Shown here piece by piece: positions 542 to 57,750 of a stretch of 64,000 nt of DNA (positions are counted from its first letter, which is position 1; every line of letters begins with the position of its first letter). Made by a program: the position numbers and the translations under genes. Source of the DNA: Patescibacteria group bacterium UBA3531 (GTDB taxonomy: Bacteria > Patescibacteriota > Minisyncoccia > Phycocordibacterales > UBA3531). The stretch is from positions 143,741-207,740 of the forward strand of contig DFOW01000001.1 in the NCBI GenBank assembly GCA_002376885.1, in the 5' to 3' direction. The notes under the pieces are model-generated. The model worked only from the letters and a program-made list of their open reading frames with translations, ran no database searches and had not been told where the DNA came from.

Positions 542-1134
542 CTTATACTTTCTACTGTAGAACATTTGAATACCCTCGTAAAAGCGGTAATTGGTATCAA
601 GGAAAACATAAACCTATTATTACGAAAGAACTATTTGATGAAGTTCAAAAGCAACTAAAAGGAAATACTCTTACAAGACAAAAAGAAAAAGAATTTGCCT
701 TCACTAAACTAATGAGGTGTGGACTCTGTGGATCGGGAATTACTGCCGATGAGAAGTTTAAGAAATTAAAGAATGGAGGAATAAATAGGCATGTCTATTA
801 TGGATGTACCAAAGTAAGAGATAGAAATTGTAAGGCTGGATATATTAACGAAACTGACCTTGTTAAACAGTTTGAGGGCTTGATAGATAAACTCGACATA
901 CATGAACTTGGTATTAAGGAGAAGATAAAAGAAGAAGTAGCACGATTTAAGAAGTTTCAGATGGCTTTATTAGGCAGAAAAGACCAAATAAAGGTTGAGG
1001 ATATAGATATACGAAATTATGCAAAGTTCATACTACAAGAAGGCAAGGATACAGAAAAAAGAGAACTCCTTAGTTACCTAAAAGGAACTATCGTGCTGAA
1101 ATATAAAATAATCTCCCTACTTACAAGAAAGTAG
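538..1134 (+). pseudogene. C-terminal fragment of a large serine recombinase (recombinase domain + zinc beta-ribbon), N-terminal catalytic domain absent
   Basis: Frame open from 538 with no start codon: ...WYQGKHKPIITKELFDEVQKQLKGN...LMRCGLCGSGITADEKF...YYGC, typical of large serine recombinase C-terminus; begins 3 bp before the upstream gene's stop codon. Confidence 0.55.
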
Positions 1135-10422: not shown

Positions 10423-12585
10423 ATGAAATTGCTGATTGTTGAGTCACCCGCAAAAGCAAAAACAATTACCAAGTATTTAGATAATAAATACAAAGTTCTT
10501 GCTTCGGTGGGCCATATTAGAGACTTGCCAAAAAGTAATAAAAAAGCCATCGACATCGAGGGCGGTTTTGTGCCGCATTATGAGGTGGCAAAAGGTAAAG
10601 AAGCTGTCGTAAAAGACCTAAAGAGCGCCATCAAAAAAGCAGATGAGGTGGTACTTGCTACCGACCCCGACCGTGAGGGAGAAGCTATTGCATGGCATAT
10701 TGAAGAGCTTTCTGGCAAAAAAGACTTAAAACGAATTGCTTTTAACGAAATCACCAAAGAAGCAGTGCAAGAAGCACTCAAACACCCTCGTTCTATAGAT
10801 ACCAATTTAAGGCGTGCGCAAGAGGCACGGCGCGTACTCGACAGACTTGTAGGATACGATCTTTCTGGTCTTATTTGGAAGAAACTGCGTTACGGTCTTT
10901 CTGCAGGGCGCGTGCAATCACCTGCTCTCCGTATTTTAATGGAGCGCGAAAAAGAGATCAGAGCTTTCAAACCGGAAGCATTTTGGGTGATCACTGCAGA
11001 CACACAAACAAAGAAAAAAGAACCTCTTCCTCTTGCTTGCAGCATTGAGCCAAAAACAGAAGAAGAAACTGACTCTATTATAGAAGCCGGCAAAAAAGGA
11101 CCCTGGGTAGTAGATGCAATTGAAGAGCGTGAAGTATCACAATCACCACGAGCGCCGTTTATTACCTCAACACTCCAACAAGCTGCAAACTCTCGTCTTG
11201 GGTTCTCTCCAAGTAAAACTATGGGCGTTGCACAAAAACTCTACGAGGCAGGCCATATTACCTATATGCGAACCGATAGTCCAACACTTTCAGGGGCCGC
11301 CCTTAAAGATGTCACTAGTGTCATTAAAAAAGGATACGGAGACGACAAGGTAGAAGTTCGCGCATTTAAAACACGCAAAAAGAGTGCACAAGAGGCACAC
11401 GAAGCAATCCGTCCAACGAGCGCAAGCAAAAAAGTTTGTGGAACAACTGCCGAACAAAAAAAATTATATTCTCTTATTTGGTCGCGTACGATTGCATCGC
11501 AAATGGTTGCAGCCCGTGTTATGCGAACAAAAGTTATTGTCCAAGTAGGTAACGGGACGACTCCACCATTTCATGTAAATGGATCACGAATCAAATCTCC
11601 GGGATGGCTCCTTGCTGATCCCTATGCACAAAGAGAAGACGTAATCCTTCCCGAGGTTTCTAAGGGGGGCAAGCTGACTCTTGTTTCAATCGAAAAAGAA
11701 GGTAAAGAAACCCAACCACCAAACCGCTACTCTGAAGCCGGTCTTATTAAAGAGCTTGAGAAGCGAGAAATTGGACGCCCTAGCACGTATGCAAGCATCA
11801 TTAAAGTTCTTGTTGATCGTGAGTATGTAGAAAAGCAAGGACGAACCCTTATTCCTACTGATACCGGCGAAGTCGTTAATGACTTTTTGGAGAATCACTT
11901 TACCGAATACATTAGCGATGACTTTACCAGTGAAATGGAAAAAGAACTTGATGAAATTGCTGAAGGTAAAAGAGAGTACGCTTCTACCCTTTCTGATTTC
12001 TATACCCCTTTTCAAAAGCGAGTTGAATCAAAAGAACATCTTGAGAAGATTTCAAACCTAGGTGAAGCAGACAAAAAACATGTATGCCCTGTATGCGGAG
12101 ACAGCATGGTTATTAAACTTGGAAAAACAGGAAAGTTTTTGAGTTGTAAAAAATTCCCCGACTGTACTGGTGCTCGTAAAATCGATGGAACCGAACTTGC
12201 CCAACCAAAAGAAATCGGCGAAGACTGTCCTGATTGTAAGGATGGAAAACTTGTACAAAAAGAAGGGCGTTTTGGAATGTTTATTGCTTGTAGCAATTAC
12301 CCAAAGTGTAAGCATGTAAAACAAGATCCATCATCACTAAAAGGAACCGGTGTTACCTGTCCTGAATGCAAAAAGGGCGAGATGGTTGAACGTCGCGGGC
12401 GATTTGGAATTTTTTATAGTTGTAGTGGTTATCCAAAGTGTAAATACGCCATTAAAGCAAAACCAACCGGAAACACGTGCCCCATGTGTGGCAAACTTAT
12501 GATGGAAGGGACCAAAACCATTCCAGAACGTTGTAGCGACAAAGCTTGCCCAAACCATAACCCTCATAAATTGGACAAAAAATAG
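10423..12585 (+). CDS. topA: DNA topoisomerase I with C-terminal zinc ribbons
   Basis: MKLLIVESPAKAKTI TOPRIM start, active-site ITYMRTDS, multiple C4 zinc ribbons at C-terminus. Confidence 0.9.
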   Translation: MKLLIVESPAKAKTITKYLDNKYKVLASVGHIRDLPKSNKKAIDIEGGFVPHYEVAKGKEAVVKDLKSAIKKADEVVLATDPDREGEAIAWHIEELSGKKDLKRIAFNEITKEAVQEALKHPRSIDTNLRRAQEARRVLDRLVGYDLSGLIWKKLRYGLSAGRVQSPALRILMEREKEIRAFKPEAFWVITADTQTKKKEPLPLACSIEPKTEEETDSIIEAGKKGPWVVDAIEEREVSQSPRAPFITSTLQQAANSRLGFSPSKTMGVAQKLYEAGHITYMRTDSPTLSGAALKDVTSVIKKGYGDDKVEVRAFKTRKKSAQEAHEAIRPTSASKKVCGTTAEQKKLYSLIWSRTIASQMVAARVMRTKVIVQVGNGTTPPFHVNGSRIKSPGWLLADPYAQREDVILPEVSKGGKLTLVSIEKEGKETQPPNRYSEAGLIKELEKREIGRPSTYASIIKVLVDREYVEKQGRTLIPTDTGEVVNDFLENHFTEYISDDFTSEMEKELDEIAEGKREYASTLSDFYTPFQKRVESKEHLEKISNLGEADKKHVCPVCGDSMVIKLGKTGKFLSCKKFPDCTGARKIDGTELAQPKEIGEDCPDCKDGKLVQKEGRFGMFIACSNYPKCKHVKQDPSSLKGTGVTCPECKKGEMVERRGRFGIFYSCSGYPKCKYAIKAKPTGNTCPMCGKLMMEGTKTIPERCSDKACPNHNPHKLDKK

Positions 12586-12587
12586 TA

Positions 12588-12609
12588 GAGGCCCACTTTC
12601 GTGGGCCTC
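12588..12609. terminator. GC hairpin after topA (gaggcccac-tttc-gtgggcctc)
   Basis: Perfect 9-bp stem immediately after topA stop; no strong T-run. Confidence 0.4.
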
Positions 12610-12636
12610 TGAGTTCGTTGTTCTGGAGTTCTGCCT

Positions 12637-12903
12637 CTAGGCCGACTCCGGAATCCCTCCGACCTCCTTGAGACGCCTGTTGGCGCGCTCGAGGAGCTCG
12701 TCCCGATCGTAGCCGGGCCAGACGATCGTACGCGTCCCGGCCAGAAGCGATCGGATGTAACCACCAACACACCTGATACGCCAGGCACCCTGGTTCGCCC
12801 CCCGATCGGTGTGATCACCGAGCTTGTCGATGAAGGCGAGCTCCTGCTGTTGCGTCCACCCGGTGGTCAAAGGCCCCGAAACGGGAACCGATCGACGTGT
12901 CAT
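12637..12903 (-). CDS. G+C-rich ORFan (cassette A), 88 aa
   Basis: GC3-rich frame; AGGAG 6 nt upstream of ATG; own TTGACA-17-TATTTT promoter; no family recognised. Confidence 0.4.
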   Translation of the reverse strand: MTRRSVPVSGPLTTGWTQQQELAFIDKLGDHTDRGANQGAWRIRCVGGYIRSLLAGTRTIVWPGYDRDELLERANRRLKEVGGIPESA

Positions 12904-12942
12904 GTCCTACTCCTTGTTGAAGGGAAAGAATTACTGCCTATG

Positions 12943-12971
12943 AAAATACAAAATAATTTCTTTTTTGTCAA
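12943..12971 (-). promoter_or_regulatory. promoter aTTGACAaaaaag-17-TATTTT for cassette A
   Basis: -35 TTGACA at 12966-12971 (minus), -10 TATTTT at 12943-12948. Confidence 0.45.
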
Positions 12972-14450: not shown

Positions 14451-15379
14451 ACTGAGAAGTTACTGATTGAGTACAGGTCTTCCTCTTCTTTTTCCTTAGG
14501 AGGTTCGGGGCTTTCTCTCTCCTCTTTTATTTGATTTTGCTCTTCTTTTTCTTTCTCAATAACTTGCAAAATATTGTCGAGATCGCTCGGAGAGAAGAAT
14601 TCAATCATAATCTTCCCTCCATTTTCTTTTTTCTCAATCCTTACACGTGTACCCAGGCGTTCAGCAAGCTTGTCCTCAAGCTCACTTGTTTCTCTATCAA
14701 AAATTTTGGTTGGCTTTCGAACCTTGTCTTGAGCAATTTTTCGAGCAATTGCCTCTGCGTCACGCACCGTGAGTCGCCTATCAATAATATCTCTAAAAAG
14801 TGTTTGTTGAGCTTCGTCTCGCCCAGAAAGCATAAGAATAGGACGCGTATGACCCTCATTGATTTTTCCTTCCCGTACTGCTTGAAGCATTTCCCCAGGA
14901 AGCATTAAAAGGCGGATACTGTTTGAAACATATTCCCTACTCTTCCCCATCTTTTTTGCAATTTCGTTGTGAGTCAAACTAAATTCATCAGAAAGTTTGG
15001 CAAAGGCTTCTGCACGATCGATAGGATTAAGATCTTCTCGTTGAAGGTTCTCAATAATAGCAAGCTCTAGTTTTACTTTATCGTTATCTTCTTTTGCACG
15101 AATTACTGCTGGAACCTGCGCCAAACCTGCAAGACGTGATGCACGCAACCTGCGTTCTCCTGCAACCAATTCATACTCGACTGCAATTCCACCGTCATCT
15201 TTTGTGATTTCTTTTCTAGTAACAACAAGTGGTTGGAGAACTCCATATTGTCTGATTGAATCAGAAAGACTTTGGAGAGCCTCCTCGTTAAATTCTTTTC
15301 TGGGCTGATGTGGGTTTGGACTAATCTTGTCCGTATCGATAAAAAAAACTGCTTGGCTGTATGGCAATGACTCTGTCAT
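14447..15379 (-). CDS. parB: ParB/Spo0J-like partition protein
   Basis: ISPNPHQPRKEFNEEALQSLSDSIRQYGVLQPLVV ParB box; HTH LTHNEIAKKMGKSREYVSNSIRLL. Confidence 0.8.
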   Translation of the reverse strand: MTESLPYSQAVFFIDTDKISPNPHQPRKEFNEEALQSLSDSIRQYGVLQPLVVTRKEITKDDGGIAVEYELVAGERRLRASRLAGLAQVPAVIRAKEDNDKVKLELAIIENLQREDLNPIDRAEAFAKLSDEFSLTHNEIAKKMGKSREYVSNSIRLLMLPGEMLQAVREGKINEGHTRPILMLSGRDEAQQTLFRDIIDRRLTVRDAEAIARKIAQDKVRKPTKIFDRETSELEDKLAERLGTRVRIEKKENGGKIMIEFFSPSDLDNILQVIEKEKEEQNQIKEERESPEPPKEKEEEDLYSISNFSV

Positions 15380-15439
15380 GATTACTTATACTAAAGCAAA
15401 TTGATTTGCCGAGCAAATTTGAGTACACTGCTTTGGTAC

Positions 15440-15521
15440 GCTGGAGTGGCGGAATTGGTAGACGCGCACGACTCAAAATCGTGTCTCTTCGGAGGTGGGA
15501 GTTCGATTCTCCCCTCCAGCA
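15440..15521 (+). tRNA. tRNA-Leu (anticodon CAA), class II long variable arm
   Basis: GCTGGAG acceptor, D-loop GGAATTGGTAG, anticodon loop CTCAAAA, variable arm TCTCTTCGGAGGTG, T-arm GGGAGTTCGATTCTCCC. Confidence 0.85.
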
Positions 15522-15530
15522 CAATTTAAT

Positions 15531-15653
15531 CCAGGGAAGGAATTGGTAGGTGAAATGTCTGGGAGACATTTCACGACGACTATCTAAATCTTCTCTTCGG
15601 AGGTGGGAGTTCCCTGCCTTGTCGGCAGACAGGGATTCTCCCCCCGGGCACCA
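15531..15653 (+). pseudogene. degenerate tRNA-Leu-derived copy with hairpin insertions (tRNA-like element)
   Basis: Shares D-loop GGAATTGGTAG, variable arm and T-stem with the adjacent tRNA-Leu. Carries a perfect 11-bp hairpin with GGG loop (GTGAAATGTCT-GGG-AGACATTTCAC) and a 21-nt insertion in the T-loop. Anticodon arm destroyed, acceptor ends do not pair, ends GCACCA. Confidence 0.5.
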
Positions 15654-15679
15654 CAGCTCATTGACCAAAGGAACTTCTT

Positions 15680-16090
15680 TTGGTTAAATCAGTAATGGGT
15701 GGCAATGGGTGCCACAAAGCTCATGTACCACTTGTCTTTGGGGAGACAAACGTGAAACAAGGAAGGACGTCCTGTGAAGATCCGTTCGTCAACTTCAACG
15801 ATCACCTCTACAAGCGCCGGGGCATCGGCTCGCTCGAAGAGGGGAAGCTCGAACGGACGGAGGATCGACCCGCCTGGGTGCCGGAGGAAGCGACCGTCGC
15901 TGTACGGACGCGGCGCCTCCACGAACGGAGGGTTCTCGAGGTAACCACGTTCCGCCCGAACGGGAGCGGGTTCATCGAACAGAAGAACATCTTGGGAGGC
16001 GGCCGCGGTAGCATGCCGTCCCCCCAGATCGTGGAGATGCTCCTGAAGGAGGAGTACCCCTCGATCGACGTCCACCTCATCCAGGGCTAG
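15680..16090 (+). CDS. G+C-rich ORFan (cassette B); alternative GTG start at 15752
   Basis: Strong G/C bias at third codon positions in this frame; AGGAAGG just before internal GTG; overlapping minus-strand ORF 15689..16075 treated as GC shadow. Confidence 0.4.
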   Translation: MVKSVMGGNGCHKAHVPLVFGETNVKQGRTSCEDPFVNFNDHLYKRRGIGSLEEGKLERTEDRPAWVPEEATVAVRTRRLHERRVLEVTTFRPNGSGFIEQKNILGGGRGSMPSPQIVEMLLKEEYPSIDVHLIQG

Positions 16091-16111
16091 CGCTTCAGGC
16101 GCACAGCCTTC

Positions 16112-16156
16112 GCGGGGCGTGCGGCACGAAAGTGTCCACGCCCCGCCTTCTTTTTT
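16112..16156 (+). terminator. strong intrinsic terminator (10-bp GC stem + T-run) ending at the miaA ATG
   Basis: GCGGGGCGTG...CACGCCCCGC followed by cttctttttt then ATG of miaA at 16157. Confidence 0.6.
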
Positions 16157-17044
16157 ATGAACAAATCAAAGCTAATCATCATCGGGGGGCCAACAGCAAG
16201 TGGCAAAAGCGACTTAGCAGTTAGTGTGGCAAAAAAATATGGTGGAGAAGTTATTTCAGCAGATTCAAGGCAAGTATATAAGGGTCTTGATATTGGAACA
16301 GGAAAAATAACAAAAAAAGAAATGGGGGGCATTCCTCACCATCTTCTTGATGTAGCAAGCCCTAAAGAGCAATTTACTGCCCAGGACTTTCAAACAAAAG
16401 GAGGCCAAGCTATTAAAAAAATTTTTAAAAAAAATAAACTCCCCATTATTTGCGGCGGCACTGGATTTTATATAGATGCTCTCATATATAAAACTCAATT
16501 TCCAAGCATCCCCCCTAATAAAACCTTGCGCACAAAACTTGAAAAAAAGACACCTGAGGAGCTTTTTAAAATACTTAAGAACAAAGATCCCGAAAGAGCC
16601 ATGGTAATTGATCAGCACAATAAACGAAGATTAATCCGAGCCTTAGAGATTGTAGAAACTTTAGGAAAAGTTCCACAATTACACAAAACATTGCCCTATA
16701 AAATTTTATATATAGCGCTTGATCCAGTTGATCTTGATATAAAAATTCATGCGCGCCTAAAAGCAAGAATCAAACAAGGACTTATAAAAGAGGGGGAAAC
16801 ACTCCATAAAAAAGGTCTTTCGTATAAACGGATGAGAGAGCTGGGGCTTGAGTATAAATATTTAGCAGATTTGCTTCAAGAAAAAATCACTAAAGAAGAA
16901 TTTACTGAACAACTTGAAAAAGAGATCAGGCGTTATGCAAAACGGCAAATGACCTGGTTTAAAAAACAAAAAAATGTTCTTTGGTTTAAACCAAATGAAA
17001 CTAAAAAAATCTCCACAAAAGTAGAGAAATTTTTAGCTCTTTAG
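16157..17044 (+). CDS. miaA: tRNA dimethylallyltransferase
   Basis: N-terminal P-loop IIGGPTASGKS, ADSRQVYKGLDIGTGK, MiaA fold. Confidence 0.85.
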   Translation: MNKSKLIIIGGPTASGKSDLAVSVAKKYGGEVISADSRQVYKGLDIGTGKITKKEMGGIPHHLLDVASPKEQFTAQDFQTKGGQAIKKIFKKNKLPIICGGTGFYIDALIYKTQFPSIPPNKTLRTKLEKKTPEELFKILKNKDPERAMVIDQHNKRRLIRALEIVETLGKVPQLHKTLPYKILYIALDPVDLDIKIHARLKARIKQGLIKEGETLHKKGLSYKRMRELGLEYKYLADLLQEKITKEEFTEQLEKEIRRYAKRQMTWFKKQKNVLWFKPNETKKISTKVEKFLAL

Positions 17045-17117: not shown

Positions 17118-17183
17118 CTCTCCTGTATGTACAGTGAGGCCATTATAACAGAGAGAGTAGGAAAAGAAATTATTTCTTTACCT

Positions 17184-17210
17184 CGTTATGAATAGTGTGC
17201 TTCCTGCACC
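17184..17210. repeat. 27-bp direct repeat copy of the rpmG 3' end (cgttatgaatagtgtgcttcctgcacc)
   Basis: Matches 17326-17352 (cgttatgCatagtgtgcttcctgcacc) with one mismatch; separated by a GC-rich 105-bp spacer. Confidence 0.7.
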
Positions 17211-17311
17211 TATTACCACTCGGAAACCCACGGTTTTCCGACGGCTTCGCCTGCCTTTCTCCACGGGAAAACTAGAGTTTTCCCGACCCCTTTCCTGCAA
17301 ATGGTACAGGA

Positions 17312-17470
17312 TTACTTTTTTATTTCGTTATGCATAGTGTGCTTCCTGCACCATTTACAGTGCTTTTTGAGTTCAATTTTACGCTCAACAAGCTTCCGAT
17401 TCTTTCGGCTCCAGTAATTAGTGCGCTTACAATCTTTGCACGCAAGTTTTATAAGTTGATCTTGTGACAT
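17312..17470 (-). CDS. rpmG: 50S ribosomal protein L33
   Basis: 52-aa ORF below track cutoff: MSQDQLIKLACKDCKRTNYWSRKNRKLVERKIELKKHCKWCRKHTMHNEIKK, with CxxC...CxxC zinc ribbon and HxxE ending typical of L33. Confidence 0.75.
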   Translation of the reverse strand: MSQDQLIKLACKDCKRTNYWSRKNRKLVERKIELKKHCKWCRKHTMHNEIKK

Positions 17471-17532
17471 ATATTCAAAATTTGAGCTTCATAAAGATAC
17501 CCCATAGACCCTGAAAAATCAAGAGAAAAGGC

Positions 17533-17928
17533 TCACCATGCGGCGAGCCTTCCTTCCCCCGTGCCCTCGGGCTTGGGAGGAATGGCGCTTCTCTGCGGCC
17601 TTCGGAAGAACTGAGATTCCCCCATGGCACGCAACATCTTGACGAAGTCGTCCTCGACACAGAAACCGAGCCTCATGATGCACTCGGGACCATCGCAAAG
17701 GACAACGACAGCGTGACTTCCTTGGGCGCCGTCCTTGGGCTGGAAGACCGAGACCCTTCCTTGGAAGCGCCAAGCAACCAAGCAATCGATGAATCCGATC
17801 TTCGTCCCACAACGAGGACAGACGCGCTTGGGGCACCACACCCCAAACCCAGCACCGGCACTGATACTGTCAGCAACCGAAGACCCCCAGGAAGTGACCC
17901 AATAATCTTCGGGAACAATCTGCGTCAC
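17533..17928 (-). CDS. G+C-rich ORFan with 4-Cys zinc-ribbon-like motif (cassette C), GTG start
   Basis: CPKRVCPRCG...CDGPEC; GC3-rich; AAAGGGGGGG upstream of GTG; no family recognised. Confidence 0.4.
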   Translation of the reverse strand: MTQIVPEDYWVTSWGSSVADSISAGAGFGVWCPKRVCPRCGTKIGFIDCLVAWRFQGRVSVFQPKDGAQGSHAVVVLCDGPECIMRLGFCVEDDFVKMLRAMGESQFFRRPQRSAIPPKPEGTGEGRLAAW

Positions 17929-17961
17929 AGCCCCCCCTTTCTGAAAAACACTTTACCTTTT

Positions 17962-17990
17962 TTGACATAAAAAAGAAAGCATAGTATGGT
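17962..17990 (+). promoter_or_regulatory. promoter TTGACAtaaaaaag-17-TATGGT for cassette C plus-strand gene
   Basis: TTGACA 17962-17967, TATGGT 17985-17990. Confidence 0.45.
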
Positions 17991-18303
17991 TTACGTCTGT
18001 TCTTATTGGGGAAGGAGCCCTATAGACATGCACCATGTTGAAGTGCTAGACATCGATGGATTCCAGAACTTCCGCCTACATGAGGGAGACGAGATCATCC
18101 TCCCTGGCGTTCATCTCGAAGCCTCTCCCGCCCCGGGAGACAAGGTGAAGCTCGCCTTCCGTGACGTGGACTGCGTGACGAAGACGAGAGAAGCACTCAT
18201 CACCGGATCCATCGACCCCGGCGAGCCGAGCAACCCGAGGGAGCCCGTGGCTCCCAAGGACATCCGAGTTCGGTGGAACGATCCCATCGTGCGCTGGTCC
18301 TAA
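17986..18303 (+). CDS. G+C-rich ORFan (cassette C), 105 aa (alternative start 18028)
   Basis: GC3-rich frame, followed by strong terminator; no family recognised. Confidence 0.4.
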   Translation: MVYVCSYWGRSPIDMHHVEVLDIDGFQNFRLHEGDEIILPGVHLEASPAPGDKVKLAFRDVDCVTKTREALITGSIDPGEPSNPREPVAPKDIRVRWNDPIVRWS

Positions 18304-18316
18304 CGGACCAGACAAA

Positions 18317-18352
18317 GACCCCCGCGCATGCGCGGGGGTCTCGTCATTTTTA
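18317..18352 (+). terminator. intrinsic terminator GACCCCCGCGCATGCGCGGGGGTC + T-run
   Basis: 12-bp perfect GC stem followed by tcgtcatttttat. Confidence 0.7.
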
Positions 18353-18485
18353 TACAGTGTGCGCCGGGCAGGATTCGGTCACGAGTTACAAATTCGCTTT
18401 GCTCATAAGTACTCTCGACCCCAGCTCAAAAATAATCTCCCAGATTATTTTTTCCGCTCTTCGAATCCTAATTCCAGTCCAGAAA

Positions 18486-25883: not shown

Positions 25884-26630
25884 ATGCAGTATATAATATT
25901 ATCACCTTGTATGGGTATAAAATATTTAATAGACGAGCAATACTTTGAGAGCTGGTCCCCTGAAATGGCATACATTCTTGGATTTTTATATGCAGACGGA
26001 AGTTTGGAAAACGCTCCTAAACTGCGAGGAAAATATGTCAGAGCAACAAGCACCGATCTTGAAGTAATAAAACATATAAAAAAATCTTTACGTTCTGAAC
26101 ACAGAATAATCATAATACCCTCTTTTAGAAAGAGAAAAGAGAGATACTTGTTCAGAGCTGGAAGCCATGTTCTTTTTGATTCATTGACACAACATGGCCT
26201 TTTTCCAAATAAGTCTTTATCAATGAAGTTCCCCAAAAACATCCCTTCAAACTACCTAAGTCATTTTATAAGGGGATATTTTGATGGTGATGGATGTGTT
26301 CACTTGTCACAGGCCCGCAACCGAGAAGGTGCTCTACTGGTTAAAAGATTGGGCGTTGTCTTTACAAGCGGAAGTGAGTTATTTTTAAAAGAATTAGAAC
26401 GAGAAATCAGAAATGTCTTAAATATCAAAAAAAGAAATATCTATAAGAGTCGTCGTTCATTCCAGTTACGATATAGCACGACTGACAGTATAGAACTATT
26501 TACATTGATATATGCAAATACAAAAAATTTATTTTATTTAGGTAGAAAAAAAGAGATTTTCCTTCGATATTTTAAGTTGCGACCTCAGAGAATTAATACT
26601 AATATTGGTAAAATGTTAAAAAATATGTAA
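25884..26630 (+). CDS. free-standing LAGLIDADG homing endonuclease (two LAGLIDADG motifs)
   Basis: LGFLYADGS and IRGYFDGDGCV motifs about 100 aa apart; basic C-terminus. Confidence 0.75.
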   Translation: MQYIILSPCMGIKYLIDEQYFESWSPEMAYILGFLYADGSLENAPKLRGKYVRATSTDLEVIKHIKKSLRSEHRIIIIPSFRKRKERYLFRAGSHVLFDSLTQHGLFPNKSLSMKFPKNIPSNYLSHFIRGYFDGDGCVHLSQARNREGALLVKRLGVVFTSGSELFLKELEREIRNVLNIKKRNIYKSRRSFQLRYSTTDSIELFTLIYANTKNLFYLGRKKEIFLRYFKLRPQRINTNIGKMLKNM

Positions 26631-26835: not shown

Positions 26836-26848
26836 TAACCGCCCATAG
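26836..26848. repeat. 13-bp duplicate of the tRNA-Lys 5' end (taaccgcccatag)
   Basis: Exact copy of 26916-26928, about 80 bp upstream of the tRNA. Confidence 0.6.
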
Positions 26849-26918
26849 TTGATAGAGATTGAAAGCGTGGGACGCTTTAAATGCGATAAACGGTAAGGTA
26901 ATATAGGAAAAAATTTAA

Positions 26919-28133: not shown

Positions 28134-28163
28134 ATCCCCCTCCCTTGCGCGTCCCATTTTTAT

Positions 28164-28192
28164 ACTTGACAAAAGCACGATTTTATGCTAAT
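28164..28192 (+). promoter_or_regulatory. promoter cTTGACAaaag-17-TAATTT for cassette D
   Basis: TTGACA 28164-28169; AT-rich -10; AAAGAGG RBS before ATG at 28297. Confidence 0.4.
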
Positions 28193-28296
28193 TTTGATGC
28201 AGGTTAGATAGCACCGCGGTGGTGCACCAGACTGTACGTCGCAGTGCGACAGTTCATCGTCAACTCACTTTCTAGCGAAGAAAAGAGGTAATATTC

Positions 28297-29475
28297 ATGT
28301 CAATCATAACCCTGACGTTGATCGTCTTCGTCACGCTCCTTGTTCTGAGTGTGCCGTTGTTCGTCCTCGTTGCGTGGCTCCTGGCCTACCTGGATATCTT
28401 TTTTGGATTCCTCCAGGAGAATACGGGCTTCGCCAAGATCGTTGGAGACAACCAACTTCAAAGCATGCAAATCGCTTCGAAGAGTCAGCACCTCAAAAGG
28501 AAGGTGGTCCAACACCCTGAGGCGGGCGCAATCGAGACGTGGGTTCTGGAACAAGGAGCAGATCCCAACCCTGCCTTCGGCCTTATTGGTTGGATGGAGC
28601 GCAAGCTTGGTGTCTACTGGATTGGTGTTTGGCCGTTCCAAAGGCGCTACCGGTACGAGATGTTCCGAACCGTCTTCGATCGGAGTGCTGACGCAGACGA
28701 GAACACGATCCTCCGGAAGAATGACCAGAGCAAGTTCTTCTACGTTCAGCCGGTGGAGTACGCCTTCTCTCTCCTCGGAGCAGAGACAGGCAGTGCCTTC
28801 GCTGGCGACACAGAAGATACGGACACTTCGTCTCGGGGTGGCAACATCCCGGTGAACGTGAAGTTCTCCGTGTTCCTCTTGATCACAAGACCCGAGATTG
28901 CCCTCTTCAAGAACCCTGTATGGTTCGAGCGAGCAAGCTCGATCCTTCTGTCCGCAGCGAAGAACTACGTCGGCACTCGTGCGTATGAGGCGCTCCGTGG
29001 CGAAAGCCGATCGGACACCGCAGACGTCGAGACCGATGATGCCTTCGCGGGCTACATGCGGGATCTGAACGAAGCGATTCCGGGAACCGGTCACGGCTTC
29101 GAATCCGAGATCGGTGCCAAGATCGTCGGAGCGGCCATCAGAGCCGTCGACATCACGGCGGAGGGCGAAGAGGCCCGAAGCGCAACGCTGCTCCTCTACG
29201 GAGAAGAGCAGCGCGCCAAGGGAATCCGAGCCGTCGCTGATGCGCGTCGCTACGAGCTCGAACAGGAGCTCGATGCAGTCGATGGATCCCCCAACGGGGG
29301 GCACGTCCGTCGGATGCGCGCGATCGAGCGTGCAGGTGAGCGTGGTAACACAATCATCTTCACGAGCGGCGGCGACGAAAAGGAGGATCGTGTCGCAGCG
29401 AACCTTCTGGCTGGCCGCAAGGGTGAAGACCCCTCAAGCGAAGGCACCGATGACTCCACCGAGAAGGAGGAGTAG
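28297..29475 (+). CDS. G+C-rich SPFH/band-7-like membrane protein (cassette D)
   Basis: N-terminal TM, beta-rich core with ...ASSILLSAAKNYVGTRAYEAL..., EIGAKIVGAAIRAVDI, then A/E/R-rich coiled-coil AEGEEARSA...RAKGIRAVADARRYE as in HflK/C-flotillin. Confidence 0.5.
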   Translation: MSIITLTLIVFVTLLVLSVPLFVLVAWLLAYLDIFFGFLQENTGFAKIVGDNQLQSMQIASKSQHLKRKVVQHPEAGAIETWVLEQGADPNPAFGLIGWMERKLGVYWIGVWPFQRRYRYEMFRTVFDRSADADENTILRKNDQSKFFYVQPVEYAFSLLGAETGSAFAGDTEDTDTSSRGGNIPVNVKFSVFLLITRPEIALFKNPVWFERASSILLSAAKNYVGTRAYEALRGESRSDTADVETDDAFAGYMRDLNEAIPGTGHGFESEIGAKIVGAAIRAVDITAEGEEARSATLLLYGEEQRAKGIRAVADARRYELEQELDAVDGSPNGGHVRRMRAIERAGERGNTIIFTSGGDEKEDRVAANLLAGRKGEDPSSEGTDDSTEKEE

Positions 29476-30252
29476 ATGAAGATGCCTGACTCGATAAGGG
29501 GGCTTGGGTGGAAGCGGTTCTCCGCAACTGCCCTTACCTCGTTCATCCTCGTCATTGTCTCGTTCATGATCGTGAACGCAGGCGAGGGCGAGGCAGAGAA
29601 GGTCTTCAAGACTCTCTCTGTGATTGCGACCGGGATTGGAGCACTCCTCGTTCTCCTGCTTCTTCTCGTGATCGTGTCGTCTCTTGCTCGTAGGCGTCGG
29701 TCTCTCAAAAAAGAGACTCCCGTCGTCGACAAGCCGACCAAACCAGGAAGATGGCAGAAGTTCAGGGCCACTCCCTTCTTCTGGACACTCTTCAAGGTCT
29801 CCGCCTTCGTAGTGGCAGTAGTCATTGCAATAAGCGGATTCCCTCTGTTGCGTGACGCCATGAACATCCCCGACGTGGGGCCCAGGAATGGAGATCTCAA
29901 GTTCTCCAAGTGGACGCTCTCCAGTACACCACTGTCGTACAACCTGAATCGAACGACACGTGGTACGGTCAAGATCTGGAAGAAAGAGCGTCGCTTTGAG
30001 CTTCCGTTCTTCTTGAACATGAAGCTCATGGGCGAGGATGGAGTTCTCGTGGGGCAAATCACCTCGAGTGACTTTGCCATGGGCGAGACCTTCCCCGTCA
30101 CCTGGGAGATGACCTGGCGAGACCATATGACCGGAGACGGAGCCCTCGAGTGTCACTACAACAAACACCACAGCGTGATTGCTTGTAACGGCACCATCTG
30201 CGGCGAAGATTCCGAAGGTCGGAGGTGTCGTCGAGTGAACTTTAGCGGCTAG
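29476..30252 (+). CDS. G+C-rich membrane protein (3 TM + Cys-containing soluble C-domain), start abuts upstream stop; possible NfeD-like partner
   Basis: TAG-ATG junction at 29473-29478; three hydrophobic helices; no family recognised. Confidence 0.4.
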   Translation: MKMPDSIRGLGWKRFSATALTSFILVIVSFMIVNAGEGEAEKVFKTLSVIATGIGALLVLLLLLVIVSSLARRRRSLKKETPVVDKPTKPGRWQKFRATPFFWTLFKVSAFVVAVVIAISGFPLLRDAMNIPDVGPRNGDLKFSKWTLSSTPLSYNLNRTTRGTVKIWKKERRFELPFFLNMKLMGEDGVLVGQITSSDFAMGETFPVTWEMTWRDHMTGDGALECHYNKHHSVIACNGTICGEDSEGRRCRRVNFSG

Positions 30253-30267
30253 AAAGGAGAAGACATC

Positions 30268-30339
30268 CTCACATCTAAATATATAGATGTGAGAAAATGG
30301 GCCCTGTCCGCCATATGCGGATAGGGCCTGTTTCTTTGT
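30268..30339. terminator. tandem hairpins between convergent cassette D and pilin array
   Basis: CTCACATCTA-aatatat-AGATGTGAG and GGGCCCTGTCCGC-cata-TGCGGATAGGGCC + tgtttcttt. Confidence 0.55.
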
Positions 30340-30360
30340 CTGCCACCTTCGTAAAATTCT

Positions 30361-48731: not shown

Positions 48732-48786
48732 GGGGCGATTAGCTCAGCTGGCTAGCAGATAAAACGATACCCCGTATCATTTTATC
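48732..48786 (+). pseudogene. tRNA 5'-half-like fragment (GGGGCGATTAGCTCAGCTGGCTAGCAG) followed by 12-bp-stem hairpin
   Basis: Resembles acceptor + D-arm of the downstream tRNA-Val but has no 3' half; then GATAAAACGATA-ccccg-TATCATTTTATC. Confidence 0.4.
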
Positions 48787-48827
48787 GTTGACATCTTTTA
48801 TTGCTGTGCGCTACCGTTACATTACAA

Positions 48828-53510: not shown

Positions 53511-53622
53511 TTAGGGTCGGGCTCGAACCGACGGTCTCCCTCGCTTCGTTCGGATGAAAAGTAATCCCATTACTTTTCATCCCTTCGCCATCCGGCGAAG
53601 GATCATTTAAACTAACCCTGCC
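53511..53622 (-). pseudogene. degenerate tRNA-Phe-derived copy with hairpin insertions (tRNA-like element)
   Basis: T-arm GTCGGTTCGAGCCCGAC identical to adjacent tRNA-Phe; anticodon arm replaced by TTCGCC-GGAT-GGCGAA tetraloop hairpin; inserted perfect 14-bp hairpin GGATGAAAAGTAAT-GGG-ATTACTTTTCATCC; acceptor does not pair. Confidence 0.45.
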
Positions 53623-57274: not shown

Positions 57275-57300
57275 AGCACTACTATACTAAAGTATTTCTC

Positions 57301-57347
57301 TTAAAAAGAAAGCCGCCTCGAGTCCACAATGGGTACCCGGGCGGCGG
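57301..57347 (-). terminator. GC hairpin + U-run ending the cassette G transcript just upstream of lepA start
   Basis: Minus RNA ...CUCCGCCGCCCGGGUACCCAUUGUGGACUCGAGGCGGCUUUCUUUUU. Confidence 0.45.
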
Positions 57348-57453
57348 AGTGGACGGCACCTGGGTGCGTCCATGGTTTTCTAGTGCGCAAGGCGCACCTT
57401 GGTGGAAGGTCCCAGCTCAAGGGGTGAGCCTCGAGTCTGGGCGGAAGGCGGAT

Positions 57454-57648
57454 CTAGCCGAAGAGGGGCGCACCGAGCGAGACGACCCCGCCGGGCAGGA
57501 TCACGTGACCCCGACCATCCGAACCGAGCGGCGGACCGCTGAGCTCGGAGAACGGGATCTCGCTCTCGCGACGGAGCCGGCGAACCGAGCCACGCGTCCG
57601 GGTGCTCTCCTTGGTGCGTACCGTGCCTTCGCCTTCCTGTTTCTTCAT
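57454..57648 (-). CDS. very G+C-rich small basic ORF (cassette G), 64 aa; coding status uncertain
   Basis: AGGAAGGGAAGGAAT-cccg-ATG context; track ORF begins at TTG inside the -35 box so trimmed to internal ATG. Confidence 0.3.
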   Translation of the reverse strand: MKKQEGEGTVRTKESTRTRGSVRRLRRESEIPFSELSGPPLGSDGRGHVILPGGVVSLGAPLFG

Positions 57649-57715
57649 CGGGATTCCTTCCCTTCCTGAAGTTCTCTTTCGAGCGCGGCCCCCAGCCACG
57701 CTACGTCCACTATCC

Positions 57716-57744
57716 AAACTACTATAATAAAAGTCTTTTGTCAA
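57716..57744 (-). promoter_or_regulatory. promoter cTTGACAaaag-17-TAGTTT for cassette G
   Basis: -35 TTGACA at 57739-57744 (minus); near-identical to cassette D promoter over 20 nt. Confidence 0.4.
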
Positions 57745-57750
57745 GCCCCC

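Follow-up and report, generated by a model that had tools for sequence, protein, structure and literature searches.

What kind of sequence stands directly behind the tRNA-Leu(CAA) gene of this marine Patescibacteria MAG, whose organism occurs in Tara samples, sharing exact blocks with the tRNA and holding hairpins between them? We examined it within a window of 64,000 nt (by which we mean the whole stretch of DNA analysed), where it follows the tRNA after a gap of only 8 nt and lies in a slot of variable content, X, in the gene order parB - tRNA-Leu(CAA) - X - miaA. The features at this slot are:

15440..15522, plus strand: tRNA-Leu(CAA), functional parent or partner of the pseudo-copy (ARAGORN; Rfam tRNA model, 59.7 bits; CCA not encoded)
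15531..15653, plus strand: pseudo-tRNA-Leu, hereafter P-Leu (alignment to tRNA-Leu and blastn-short; z = 12.8 for the flank alignment against tRNA-Leu(CAA); no tRNA call)
15539..15549, plus strand: D-loop block of P-Leu, GGAATTGGTAG, 11/11 identical to tRNA-Leu(CAA) at 15440-15522 (blastn-short, alignment)
15550..15574, plus strand: perfect 11-bp hairpin with a GGG triloop, of the TCT-GGG-AGA type (GTGAAATGTCT-GGG-AGACATTTCAC)
15613..15633, plus strand: 21-nt T-loop insert CCTGCCTTGTCGGCAGACAGG, a degenerate member of the GC-rich palindrome family CCTGCCTG...CAGGCAGG
15654..16156, plus strand: G+C-rich cassette B with an orphan ORF at 15695-16090 (131 aa); GC3 0.77 vs 0.27 native

Read from its sequence, P-Leu is a non-functional copy of the adjoining tRNA-Leu(CAA), homologous to it over nearly the full length. 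It runs from a degenerate 5' acceptor strand through the D-loop, the hairpin insert (which stands in place of the 3' strand of the D-stem) and a remnant of the anticodon arm to the variable arm, a T-arm split by the second insert and a divergent 3' acceptor strand, and closes with ACCA (3' end GGGCACCA). The initial annotation had described the element as keeping the D-loop, variable arm and T-stem of its neighbour, and the alignments bear this out: besides the D-loop block, the stretch at 15592-15612 (variable arm, 5' T-stem and start of the T-loop) matches at 21/21 positions and GATTCTCCCC at 15634-15643 matches at 10/10, giving 31/31 for the variable arm and T-arm. The perfect 11-bp GGG hairpin reported there is also as described. 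The T-loop insert does measure 21 nt, but the palindrome it was said to form is imperfect, with two alternative 5-bp stems; similarly, a loss of pairing had been claimed for both the anticodon and acceptor arms, and while the anticodon stem is indeed gone, the acceptor still pairs at 5/7 positions.

P-Leu cannot fold as a tRNA. ARAGORN made no call at 15531-15653 in default or intron mode, the Rfam tRNA model found no match to P-Leu even at E ≤ 10 in a 401-nt slice (15400-15800), and in silico deletion of either or both inserts yielded no ARAGORN call at default thresholds, with or without intron mode; a relaxed threshold gave inconsistent calls only (Glu or Val).

P-Leu is not alone in the window, where 5 of the 13 tRNAs have an adjoining partial copy (tRNA-flank alignment z-scores of 8-13) and all five copies hold a hairpin with a GGG/CCC loop. 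The other four are:

18357..18482, minus strand: sister element after tRNA-Tyr (class II, see below), with a GGG hairpin at 18428-18452; scores 97.7 bits with model R1 at 18365-18473
26839..26907, plus strand: pseudo-tRNA-Lys (P-Lys), upstream of tRNA-Lys; 5' acceptor 10/10, with anticodon and variable-region remnants
48732..48795, plus strand: pseudo-tRNA 5' half (P-Val), upstream of tRNA-Val; 13-bp hairpin at 48758-48786, then an anticodon-loop remnant TTGACAT
53513..53621, minus strand: pseudo-tRNA-Phe (P-Phe), downstream of tRNA-Phe; anticodon-arm-like hairpin, T-arm 21/21

The initial annotation had named the elements at tRNA-Phe, with its 14-bp GGG hairpin, and before tRNA-Val; both are real, but the total is five rather than three, the tRNA-Lys and tRNA-Tyr elements having been overlooked. 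The window has five GGG/CCC-loop hairpins with no more than one mismatch, all of them in tRNA-derived copies and three with perfect stems; perfect hairpins of at least 9 bp amount to 30 stem/loop combinations (13 distinct) in the window as compared to 1.7 ± 1.3 in shuffles. The perfect 14-bp GGG hairpin of P-Phe (53552-53582) occupies the variable-loop position, and with this hairpin removed P-Phe gives an aberrant tRNA-like ARAGORN call. P-Lys carries ATTGAAAGCGT-GGG-ACGCTTTAAAT at 26858-26882 with one mismatch; the P-Val hairpin also has one mismatch in its 13-bp stem, and its loop reads CCC on the tRNA-fragment strand and GGG on the minus strand. The tRNA-Tyr sister is organised as an inverted T-arm copy, a helix P2 capped by the GGG hairpin and a helix P3, followed by 21 nt that repeat the 3' end of tRNA-Tyr exactly (18357-18377); it differs in kind from P-Leu in being a member of a strongly covarying structured family. 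Intrinsic-terminator-like hairpins lie between tRNA-Tyr and tRNA-Phe and their respective trailing elements, fold z-scores range from -2.4 to -5.6, and the 3' end of rpmG is duplicated in a similar way.

Relatives of the locus were reached through ClpB homologues and a tRNA-Leu(CAA) pattern scan of metagenomes; in the reference-genome collection the best miaA relative was only 43% identical, with no synteny. The distant genome L105 has a GGG hairpin of the same type directly after GGAATTGGTAG, at the same site as in P-Leu, and the 25-nt P-Leu hairpin has 21 matching positions with the reversed T-loop insert of L105. On its left the hairpin insert is bordered by the conserved GGAATTGGTAG in the window, in L105 and L040 and in related pseudo-copies; in L040 the counterpart of P-Leu has an imperfect hairpin and its T-arm is missing. 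Two sister strains, L027 and L028, have an identical ClpB protein, yet differ by the gain or loss of two tandem hairpin units; the P-Lys hairpin orthologue is present in two copies in L027 and in none in L028. Presence or absence also differs between L030 and the window at tRNA-Cys and tRNA-Leu(TAA). Hairpin inserts occupy at least four different positions of tRNA-like scaffolds, 2 of ~13 being reversed (48758-48786 of the window, and L105), and outside the window GGG hairpins were found in only three other lineages of those sampled (~120 loci). The copies share the loop, about three closing base pairs ((C/A)T...A(G/T)) and A-rich arms; beyond the P-Leu/L105 match (21/25), their stems are mutually unrelated. 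An origin of the arms as a fold-back of the local tRNA was rejected, as the arms (TGAAA...) resemble each other more than they do the cognate anticodon regions.

CCTGCC...GGCAGG palindromes form a second family, found repeatedly in pieces of pseudo-tRNA-Leu and in most cases next to a GIY-YIG endonuclease gene. Members of this GC-rich family were identified in L031, L044, L099 and L105, plus a variant in L112; CCTGCCTGCCGGCAGGCAGG occupies the same D-stem site in L031, L044 and L099, while in L105, L112 and also L044 it is found at other positions. In L031, L044, L099 and L112 a GIY-YIG ORF of 78-100 aa (Pfam E = 1e-16 for that of L031) is wedged between the palindrome-bearing 5' part of a pseudo-tRNA-Leu and the intact tRNA. 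Both P-Leu inserts belong to families that recur in tRNA-derived DNA of the lineage. The two outcomes that could have overturned the initial annotation were not encountered: no intron-containing tRNA was called, and the hairpins have relatives elsewhere.

Cassette B, rightly singled out in the initial annotation as G+C-rich (GC3 0.77 vs 0.27-0.32 in native genes), lies beyond P-Leu and not between tRNA-Leu(CAA) and its copy, and is, to judge from its composition, foreign. It contains a long-loop GC hairpin with a T-run just before miaA; a promoter-like TTGACC-17-TTAAAT seen by eye at 15661-15689 has no support, a promoter/terminator scan of 15300-16200 being empty. The cassette ORFs had no match in Pfam, PHROGs or NCBIfam, which includes no nuclease family for ORF131, and the only database relative of cassette B was the same locus. 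A 392-aa ORF of island D had 165 distant homologues of unknown function and no viral relatives. The cassettes of the window proved unrelated when compared with one another, no third tRNA-derived repeat rose above background on their far side, and L031, L105 and the window have different genes both after tRNA-Leu(CAA) (before miaA) and after tRNA-Tyr. With respect to mobility genes, no recombinase was found among the genes called over 6157-64000 of the window and no intI-like gene among the called genes, and the 64-kb window holds no transposase, RAYT, IS200-type gene or intact integrase; its only recombinase trace is a truncated serine-recombinase fragment (140-aa Zn_ribbon_recom, 712-1134). 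A LAGLIDADG gene at 25884-26630, absent in relatives, abuts the tRNA cluster of the window.

The initial annotation had offered three explanations: decayed att-site duplicates, small palindromic insertions targeting tRNA copies, and tRNA-like regulatory or processing RNAs. The first of these holds insofar as P-Leu is a decayed copy at a tRNA-linked hotspot whose cargo differs in relatives, but the geometry is not that of a classical att site, with an 8-nt gap, the cassette beyond the copy, no far-side repeat and no intact integrase in the window. Tycheposons, the tRNA-linked islands of marine Prochlorococcus, have partial tRNAs and remnants scattered in them, and their description makes no mention of hairpins or palindromes (0 occurrences of either word) (10.1101/2020.12.28.424599). 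The present locus resembles such islands in having a full tRNA with adjoining partial copies (exact P-Leu blocks of 21+10 nt and 11 nt), cargo of foreign composition that varies between relatives in a streamlined marine genome, and a degraded recombinase fragment elsewhere in the window; it is unlike them in lacking an integrase at the locus, in a copy that is all but complete and separated from the tRNA by only 8 nt, in cargo placed outside the two repeats and not between them, and in the palindromic inserts of its copies.

The second explanation is the best supported of the three, and it underlies the reading that we favour, with about as much confidence as doubt: that P-Leu is a copy of tRNA-Leu(CAA) which lies displaced at an insertion hotspot, is now dead and has been colonised by miniature palindromic elements. 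Under this reading tRNA genes would be landing sites for small elements without ORFs, for cassettes of orphan genes and for free-standing homing-endonuclease genes; landing would duplicate the tRNA in part or in full, leaving one copy at work and the spare free to decay. Miniature palindromic elements, of which there would be two kinds or more (an AT-rich hairpin tipped with TCT-GGG-AGA, and the GC-rich CCTGCCTG...CAGGCAGG), would then enter stem-loop positions of tRNA-shaped DNA (the D-arm/anticodon-arm junction, the variable loop and the T-loop), and would be seen only in spare copies because an insert would kill a working tRNA. Template-switch correction of quasi-palindromes is a mechanism known in general; it could maintain the complementarity of the arms, and recent insertion would explain this complementarity equally well.

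REP/BIME elements, which are mobilised by RAYT transposases, are known systems with which these palindromes may be compared, as are Rickettsia palindromic elements and the GC clusters of yeast mitochondria. Like REP/BIME-type repeats, the inserts are hairpins of 20-30 nt present in several copies per genome, in either orientation and with strain-level presence or absence, and can sit within RNA-gene-like sequence; unlike them, they are found here in tRNA-derived DNA only, share the loop and closing pairs rather than a full consensus, and have no RAYT or IS200-type gene in the 64 kb. The missing transposase, RAYT and intact integrase genes count against colonisation by palindromic elements, as does the little that the hairpin copies share beyond loop, closing base pairs and A-rich arms, which is unlike a typical MITE family. 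Stems that differ between copies while 3/5 are perfect would also fit selection on structure, and the restriction to tRNA sequence could mean that the hairpin was born together with the copy and not inserted later. Finally, it is odd, if the copy has simply decayed, that the variable arm and T-arm are still 31/31 identical when neither acceptor strand is; this pattern suggests gene conversion or a hybrid origin.

The tRNA-Tyr sister led us to the structured family mentioned above (class II, model R1), a three-way junction found behind tRNA-Tyr, Trp, Leu and Cys. Of its 35 hits, 31 lie downstream of a same-strand tRNA, at 25-72 nt or, as a second tandem copy, at ~250 nt. In the family alignment 90.5% of cells pair as compared to 36-45% in slid controls, double changes occur in 25 of 27 pairs, and one G.U pair is near-invariant, which argues for that strand acting as RNA or ssDNA. 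The elements are bounded by exact 19-21-nt repeats of tRNA 3' ends, and these repeats often run 2-13 nt beyond the tRNA end, that is, the duplication is at the DNA level. A GGG triloop caps P2, on unrelated stems, in three tRNA-Tyr-linked elements (the window, L107 and L105), of which those of the window and L107 score with model R1 and that of L105 was placed by eye from its layout; most class II members lack a GGG hairpin, and P2 is highly variable. Two of three imperfect GGG hairpins deviate by a G.U on the GGG strand.

The class II family is well supported and has no counterpart in Rfam: 15 related loci were unmatched in Rfam 15 at the gathering score and at E ≤ 1, and only weak chance-level hits came from the window at E ≤ 0.1 and from the local slice at E ≤ 10. 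The layouts of hammerhead, tmRNA, group II domain V and retron were compared by eye with the junction and did not fit. Near-identical cores stand behind different tRNAs, L086 (Leu) and L030 (Cys) being 87% identical and L107 (Tyr) and L102 (Leu) 80% identical, and in each case P1 matches the local tRNA; the element thus seems either to receive a copy of the target information or to read it. We tentatively entertain the possibility, itself somewhat doubtful, that the hairpin-bearing pseudo-tRNAs, and above all the element at 18365-18473, belong to an undescribed class of ORF-less, structure-defined mobile elements of Patescibacteria that would insert in the T-loop/D-arm region of tRNAs and duplicate the tRNA 3' end, with an internal strand, M1, complementary to whichever tRNA precedes them. 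If so, they would find tRNA genes under the guidance of RNA or ssDNA, or by a mechanism resembling a primer-binding site, and the hairpins of the GGG and CTGC types would serve them as modules and not be junk. Given the tRNA-Tyr sister family, a functional or self-mobile structured element remains a live alternative to the dead, colonised copy.

The functional side of this alternative is that the pseudo-tRNAs and their hairpins are tRNA-like ncRNAs, or decaying members of such a class, in which the GGG hairpin would be a selected structural module; it could act as a signal for processing or protein binding in RNAs that pass through the tRNA maturation machinery, or as a decoy for binders of tRNA 3' ends. 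We regard this as rather unlikely. The conserved, covarying junction of the tRNA-Tyr sister family, the position of 31 of its 35 hits downstream of a same-strand tRNA, the GGG triloops capping P2 on unrelated stems, the G.U deviations on the GGG strand and the fold z-scores all speak for it. However, P-Leu, P-Phe, P-Lys and P-Val have no match to the class II family model, most class II members have no GGG hairpin, reversed hairpin copies exist, and the terminator-like hairpins after tRNA-Tyr and tRNA-Phe argue against simple co-transcription. P-Leu in particular has lost its anticodon stem and part of its acceptor stem, and its counterpart in L040 decays differently. The regulatory or processing RNA proposed in the initial annotation is accordingly not supported for P-Leu, but a tRNA-like RNA is a serious possibility for the covarying tRNA-Tyr sister.

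We consider it quite improbable that the elements are recombination sites, either attachment sites or folded single strands in the manner of attC or the CTX-phage attP, at which a distant recombinase would load cassettes beside tRNAs by reading the hairpins and inverted tRNA copies. Integron attC and CTX-phage attP are folded single-strand recombination sites, and the tRNA-Tyr sister family is like them in conserving structure while leaving the sequence free, in having an internal strand that pairs with the target copy and in adjoining cassettes; it is unlike them in that no integron integrase was found and that there is one element per tRNA, not per cassette. Such sites would suit the tRNA 3'-end repeats bounding class II elements, the variable cargo just beyond them and the serine-recombinase remnant in the window, and the identical 31-nt block of P-Leu, with divergent flanks on both sides, resembles an attachment-site core. 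Against this, none of the five loci has an integrase at it or nearby, the cassette lacks a bracketing pair of repeats, only 8 nt separate tRNA-Leu from P-Leu, and the hairpin stems differ at every locus, leaving no single site for a sequence-specific protein. Limited viral scans likewise gave nothing in its favour: 70 viral contigs match a 16-nt core motif of class II but none scores with the family model, and the D-loop/palindrome junction is absent from IMG/VR.

Very unlikely, in our view, is an origin of copy and inserts as a one-step by-product of a homing-endonuclease-type event, in which the tRNA segment of an incoming cassette displaces the resident one and the palindromes would be part of the mobile unit, serving for example to disrupt the nuclease target or the homology between repeats. 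Free-standing homing endonuclease genes that bring a replacement gene end and leave a displaced pseudogene fragment are known in fungal mitochondria, which offer an analogous case, and the seg genes of phage T4 lie near tRNA genes. The GIY-YIG ORFs of L031, L044, L099 and L112, each flanked exactly by the displaced 5' part of a tRNA-Leu on one side and the intact tRNA-Leu on the other, the LAGLIDADG gene abutting the tRNA cluster of the window and the similarly duplicated rpmG 3' end all fit such an event. Here, however, no nuclease gene adjoins P-Leu and ORF131 has no recognisable domain, the target is a bacterial chromosomal tRNA and the fragments hold palindromes. Furthermore, the GIY-YIG genes stand beside upstream 5' halves, whereas P-Leu follows its tRNA and is nearly complete, and the same hairpin family caps P2 of class II elements with no nuclease gene nearby.

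The genomes of Patescibacteria are very small, and few mobile elements can be recognised in them. The locus points to their tRNA genes as places where foreign cassettes and homing-endonuclease genes dock, a traffic that leaves characteristic debris in the form of spare tRNA copies studded with miniature palindromes. If class II turns out to act as a functional RNA, or as a mobile element that carries a guide, tRNA biology or gene transfer in a major uncultured bacterial radiation would gain a new player.

That P-Leu should be a mis-assembly, or a true tRNA gene interrupted by small introns, is scarcely credible, since, although its inserts lie at loop or junction positions and its 3' end reads ACCA, ARAGORN and the Rfam tRNA model find no tRNA with the inserts deleted or not, it has no anticodon stem and its junctions are recovered in independent assemblies. 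Non-canonical small tRNA introns are known from Thermoproteales archaea, where short inserts similarly occupy D-arm and T-loop positions; here, by contrast, removal of the inserts restores no tRNA, the host is bacterial and a functional copy without introns adjoins, and an intron-containing tRNA was rejected on the deletion results at default thresholds. A chimeric assembly at conserved tRNA sequence is excluded by the recovered junctions: the region 15598-16448 (T-arm with its insert, the cassette and miaA) was found in an independent ENA assembly with 1 mismatch in 851 nt, and the Lys, Val and Phe elements are 100% identical between the JGI and ENA assemblies. Such tRNA copies can confuse tRNA counts and break assemblies; the contigs of close relatives stop within ~70-380 nt of tRNA-Tyr.

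P-Leu, the 123-nt element that follows tRNA-Leu(CAA), is a non-functional homologue of this tRNA. It starts 8 bases past the tRNA and aligns over almost its whole length (z = 12.8 in the flank alignment), matching 11/11 positions in the D-loop block GGAATTGGTAG, 21/21 across the variable arm and 5' T-stem, and 10/10 over the 3' T-loop and T-stem; this bears out the initial annotation of a partial tRNA-Leu copy carrying a perfect GGG-loop hairpin.

15440-15522: tRNA-Leu(CAA)
15531-15653: P-Leu
15550-15574: perfect hairpin insert of P-Leu, GTGAAATGTCT-GGG-AGACATTTCAC, in place of the D-stem 3' strand
15613-15633: T-loop insert of P-Leu, CCTGCCTTGTCGGCAGACAGG, 21 nt

The T-loop insert described at the outset is present, with the correction that it is only an imperfect palindrome. 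The reported loss of pairing holds for the anticodon arm, of which a trace remains (ACGACT...AAATC), and only in part for the acceptor, whose strands are unlike those of the resident tRNA and still pair with each other at 5/7 positions; the 3' terminus is ACCA. Neither the Rfam tRNA model nor ARAGORN, with inserts kept or deleted, called P-Leu as a tRNA, and since in silico deletion of the inserts rescued no tRNA an intron-containing tRNA was ruled out. A chimera was also ruled out, as an independent assembly repeats the T-arm insert, the adjoining cassette and miaA with 1 mismatch in 851 nt.

An exact protein look-up assigned the window to contig PAMJ01000009.1 of GCA_002708165.1, a marine Patescibacteria MAG; ClpB homologues place it among Paceibacteria-like lineages, and JGI and ENA assemblies contain near-identical contigs. 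The window (42% G+C) is bacterial chromosome with topA, a relA/spoT-type gene, parB, miaA, clpB, RNase P RNA and 13 tRNA genes. When each tRNA was scanned against its own flanks, 5/13 had adjoining partial copies, downstream of Leu(CAA), Tyr and Phe and upstream of Lys and Val, which confirmed the proposed sister copies at tRNA-Phe and tRNA-Val, each with a GGG/CCC-loop hairpin. When the window was scanned for triloop hairpins, allowing one mismatch, five had a GGG or CCC loop, exactly those within the five tRNA copies; four of the five have a U-GGG-A tip, and their stems differ apart from common A-rich 5' arms (TGAAA or AAAAT). In all, the window has 13 distinct perfect hairpins with stems of 9 bp or more; these amount to 30 stem/loop combinations, whereas shuffled sequence gave 1.7 ± 1.3. 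Independent assemblies are 100% identical at the Lys, Val and Phe elements. Two further matches may be chance: a perfect 15-bp hairpin at the window start (28-61) with TCTGGGA within its arms, and 13 nt matching the tRNA-Tyr 3' end at 57489-57501, inside G+C-rich island E.

A pattern scan of metagenomes gave 119 tRNA-Leu(CAA) loci of relatives, all metagenomic fragments, of which 71 have an adjoining ParB and 16 have adjoining partial tRNA copies of two kinds: class I, decayed copies with palindromic inserts of the P-Leu type, and the structured class II. Both P-Leu inserts belong to families recurrent in the tRNA-derived DNA of this lineage, and these families turn up in either orientation at several positions and are polymorphic between strains; the possibility that the hairpins were unique was not borne out, with relatives in loci L105 and L027 and further tRNA-derived loci. 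In four loci an upstream tRNA-Leu 5' part bearing the palindrome CCTGCCTGCCGGCAGGCAGG or a variant (in three of the four at the same D-stem site) is followed by a GIY-YIG ORF of 78–100 aa and then the intact tRNA:

L031:17500-17830, minus strand: GIY-YIG unit of L031
L044, L099 and L112: GIY-YIG units directly upstream of tRNA-Leu(CAA)

This arrangement spans four unrelated metagenomic lineages and is tandemly repeated in L099. The window T-loop insert (15613-15633) is a degenerate copy of the same palindrome. The counterpart of the other insert was found in L105 (53% G+C), which has the Leu...Trp...Tyr order of the window and an array of pseudo-Leu pieces: one piece starts with GGAATTGGTAG followed by the perfect hairpin GGACAAGATTCT-GGG-AGAATCTTGTCC, with the same site and TCT-GGG-AGA tip as P-Leu; an upstream piece bears a CCTGCC palindrome plus a GGG hairpin (one G.U pair); and a third has a reversed hairpin within its T-loop matching the P-Leu hairpin at 21/25 positions. 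The L040 counterpart, in the same place as P-Leu, shows decay in its imperfect hairpin and missing T-arm. L027 and L028 have the same ClpB protein yet differ by two tandem hairpin units, each containing ATTGAAAGCGT-GGG/GGA-ACGCTTTCAAT, the orthologue of the window Lys hairpin. In a third type of hairpin the AAA-CTGC-TTT tip is conserved while the stems vary freely; it has 17 perfect copies of at least 8 bp (L027:2575-2596, L153, L154, L058, L109, L117, L075, L150 and others), mostly in tRNA-derived contexts (the pseudo-tRNA-Leu D-arm position, or the class II acceptor-like strand/M1 gap).

Class II is an undescribed family of structured elements, with strong covariation, that trail Patescibacteria tRNA genes. 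After tRNA-Tyr in the window a terminator-like hairpin comes first, followed in order by M1 (the T-arm of the local tRNA in inverted, complementary form), GAAAG, the helix P2 (GNC...GN'C), whose variable capping hairpin is here the GGG hairpin, P3 (a GGUCG...UGACC helix) and an exact 19–21-nt tRNA repeat running from the mid-T-loop to a few bases beyond the 3' end.

18365-18473, minus strand: class II member of the window
L107:42-167, L102:99-250, L140:1399-1523, L086:8216-8342, L046:2195-2331 and ~30 more: members in relatives

RNAalifold predicted a three-way junction from seven members, with compensatory changes in 18/27 pairs. A covariance model, whose E-values are rough owing to a short calibration, gave 35 matches in ~0.95 Mb of sequence, 31 of them downstream of a same-strand tRNA by 25–72 nt, or by ~250 nt as a second tandem copy; matches per genes sampled were Leu(CAA) 11/113, Tyr 8/13, Trp 7/43, Leu(TAA) 2/5, Cys 1/6, Leu(TAG) 1/4 and Leu(CAG) 1/1. 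In a 29-sequence alignment, which leans towards the structure because it was fitted to the model, 90.5% of cells paired versus 36–45% with slid partners, 25/27 pairs had double changes, the covariation score was 0.548 versus about 0.08, and one pair was G.U in 16 sequences. No Rfam family matched even at E ≤ 1. Outside P1, neither genome nor tRNA type accounts for how the cores group: L086 (Leu) shares 87% identity with L030 (Cys), and L107 (Tyr) 80% with L102 (Leu). Despite these shared cores P1 fits the local tRNA in every case. It is from this family that the main rival to our preferred reading, namely that the elements are or were functional tRNA-like RNAs, draws its strength; within the window the model scores the tRNA-Tyr element only, with no match at P-Leu or at the copies beside tRNA-Phe, -Lys and -Val, and we consider this rival unlikely.

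The P-Leu locus is a cargo hotspot. The window has five short G+C-rich islands with orphan ORFs (GC3 0.66–0.77 versus 0.27–0.32 for native genes), and cassettes B and C follow P-Leu and the tRNA-Tyr element, respectively.

12536-12952: island
15654-16156: cassette B, with the orphan ORF131
17471-18356: cassette C
28134-30360: island
57275-57750: island E
25884-26630, plus strand: free-standing two-motif LAGLIDADG homing endonuclease gene, between rbfA and tRNA-Cys
712-1134, plus strand: large serine recombinase fragment, 140-aa ORF

The cassette ORFs matched no family in Pfam, PHROGs or NCBIfam, and comparison of the cassettes with each other revealed no relatedness; one candidate donor is higher-GC Patescibacteria such as L105. 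L031 (78% ClpB identity) keeps the order clpB-tRNA-Tyr...tRNA-Trp-miaA...tRNA-Leu(CAA)-parB with other genes in the slots (an HTH protein, an OMP-decarboxylase-like gene and a 114-aa ORF), and the LAGLIDADG gene is missing at the matching position in L027 and L031. As the 712-1134 ORF consists of the zinc-ribbon C-terminal domain alone, it is what is left of a truncated integrase; the 64-kb window contains neither an integrase nor a transposase in intact form.

We compared P-Leu with known systems. The closest picture comes from streamlined marine bacteria, whose tRNA-linked islands contain remnants and partial repeats of tRNAs (10.1101/2020.12.28.424599); the window locus differs in lacking classical geometry and an integrase. 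A recombination-site reading, which overlaps our preferred one, seems quite improbable. In their behaviour the hairpins resemble palindromes of the REP or MITE type, but without a strong consensus, a transposase visible in the 64-kb window or a dispersed distribution. Free-standing homing endonuclease genes replace gene ends in organelles and phages. The GIY-YIG arrangement of the relatives parallels this, and a one-step homing-type origin, again overlapping, is likewise quite improbable. Given these likenesses and differences, we assign P-Leu to no single known family. Our preferred reading, to which we give about an even chance, is that mobile-DNA traffic at tRNA genes would create spare tRNA copies, and that miniature palindromes preferring stem-loop positions of tRNA-shaped DNA would survive in the spares only. 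It leaves unexplained why stems so divergent are still perfect, and why the central 31 nt of P-Leu are identical to the resident tRNA when both acceptor strands differ.

Several minor features accompany these loci. For the 392-aa ORF at 28297-29475 there are 165 distant homologues, whose function is unknown, and a truncated methyltransferase ORF (143-541) lies beside the recombinase fragment. The rpmG (L33) 3' end is duplicated ~142 nt downstream beside tRNA-Trp, giving a direct repeat of 48 nt (17169-17216 and 17311-17358) with 85% identity and a hairpin at 17264-17285 between the two copies; it resembles the pseudo-tRNAs in looking like the displaced fragment of a gene end. Lastly, contigs of the closest relatives (L027, L028 and L030) end within ~70–380 nt past tRNA-Tyr, which would fit assemblies being broken by repeats or strain variability at the hotspot.
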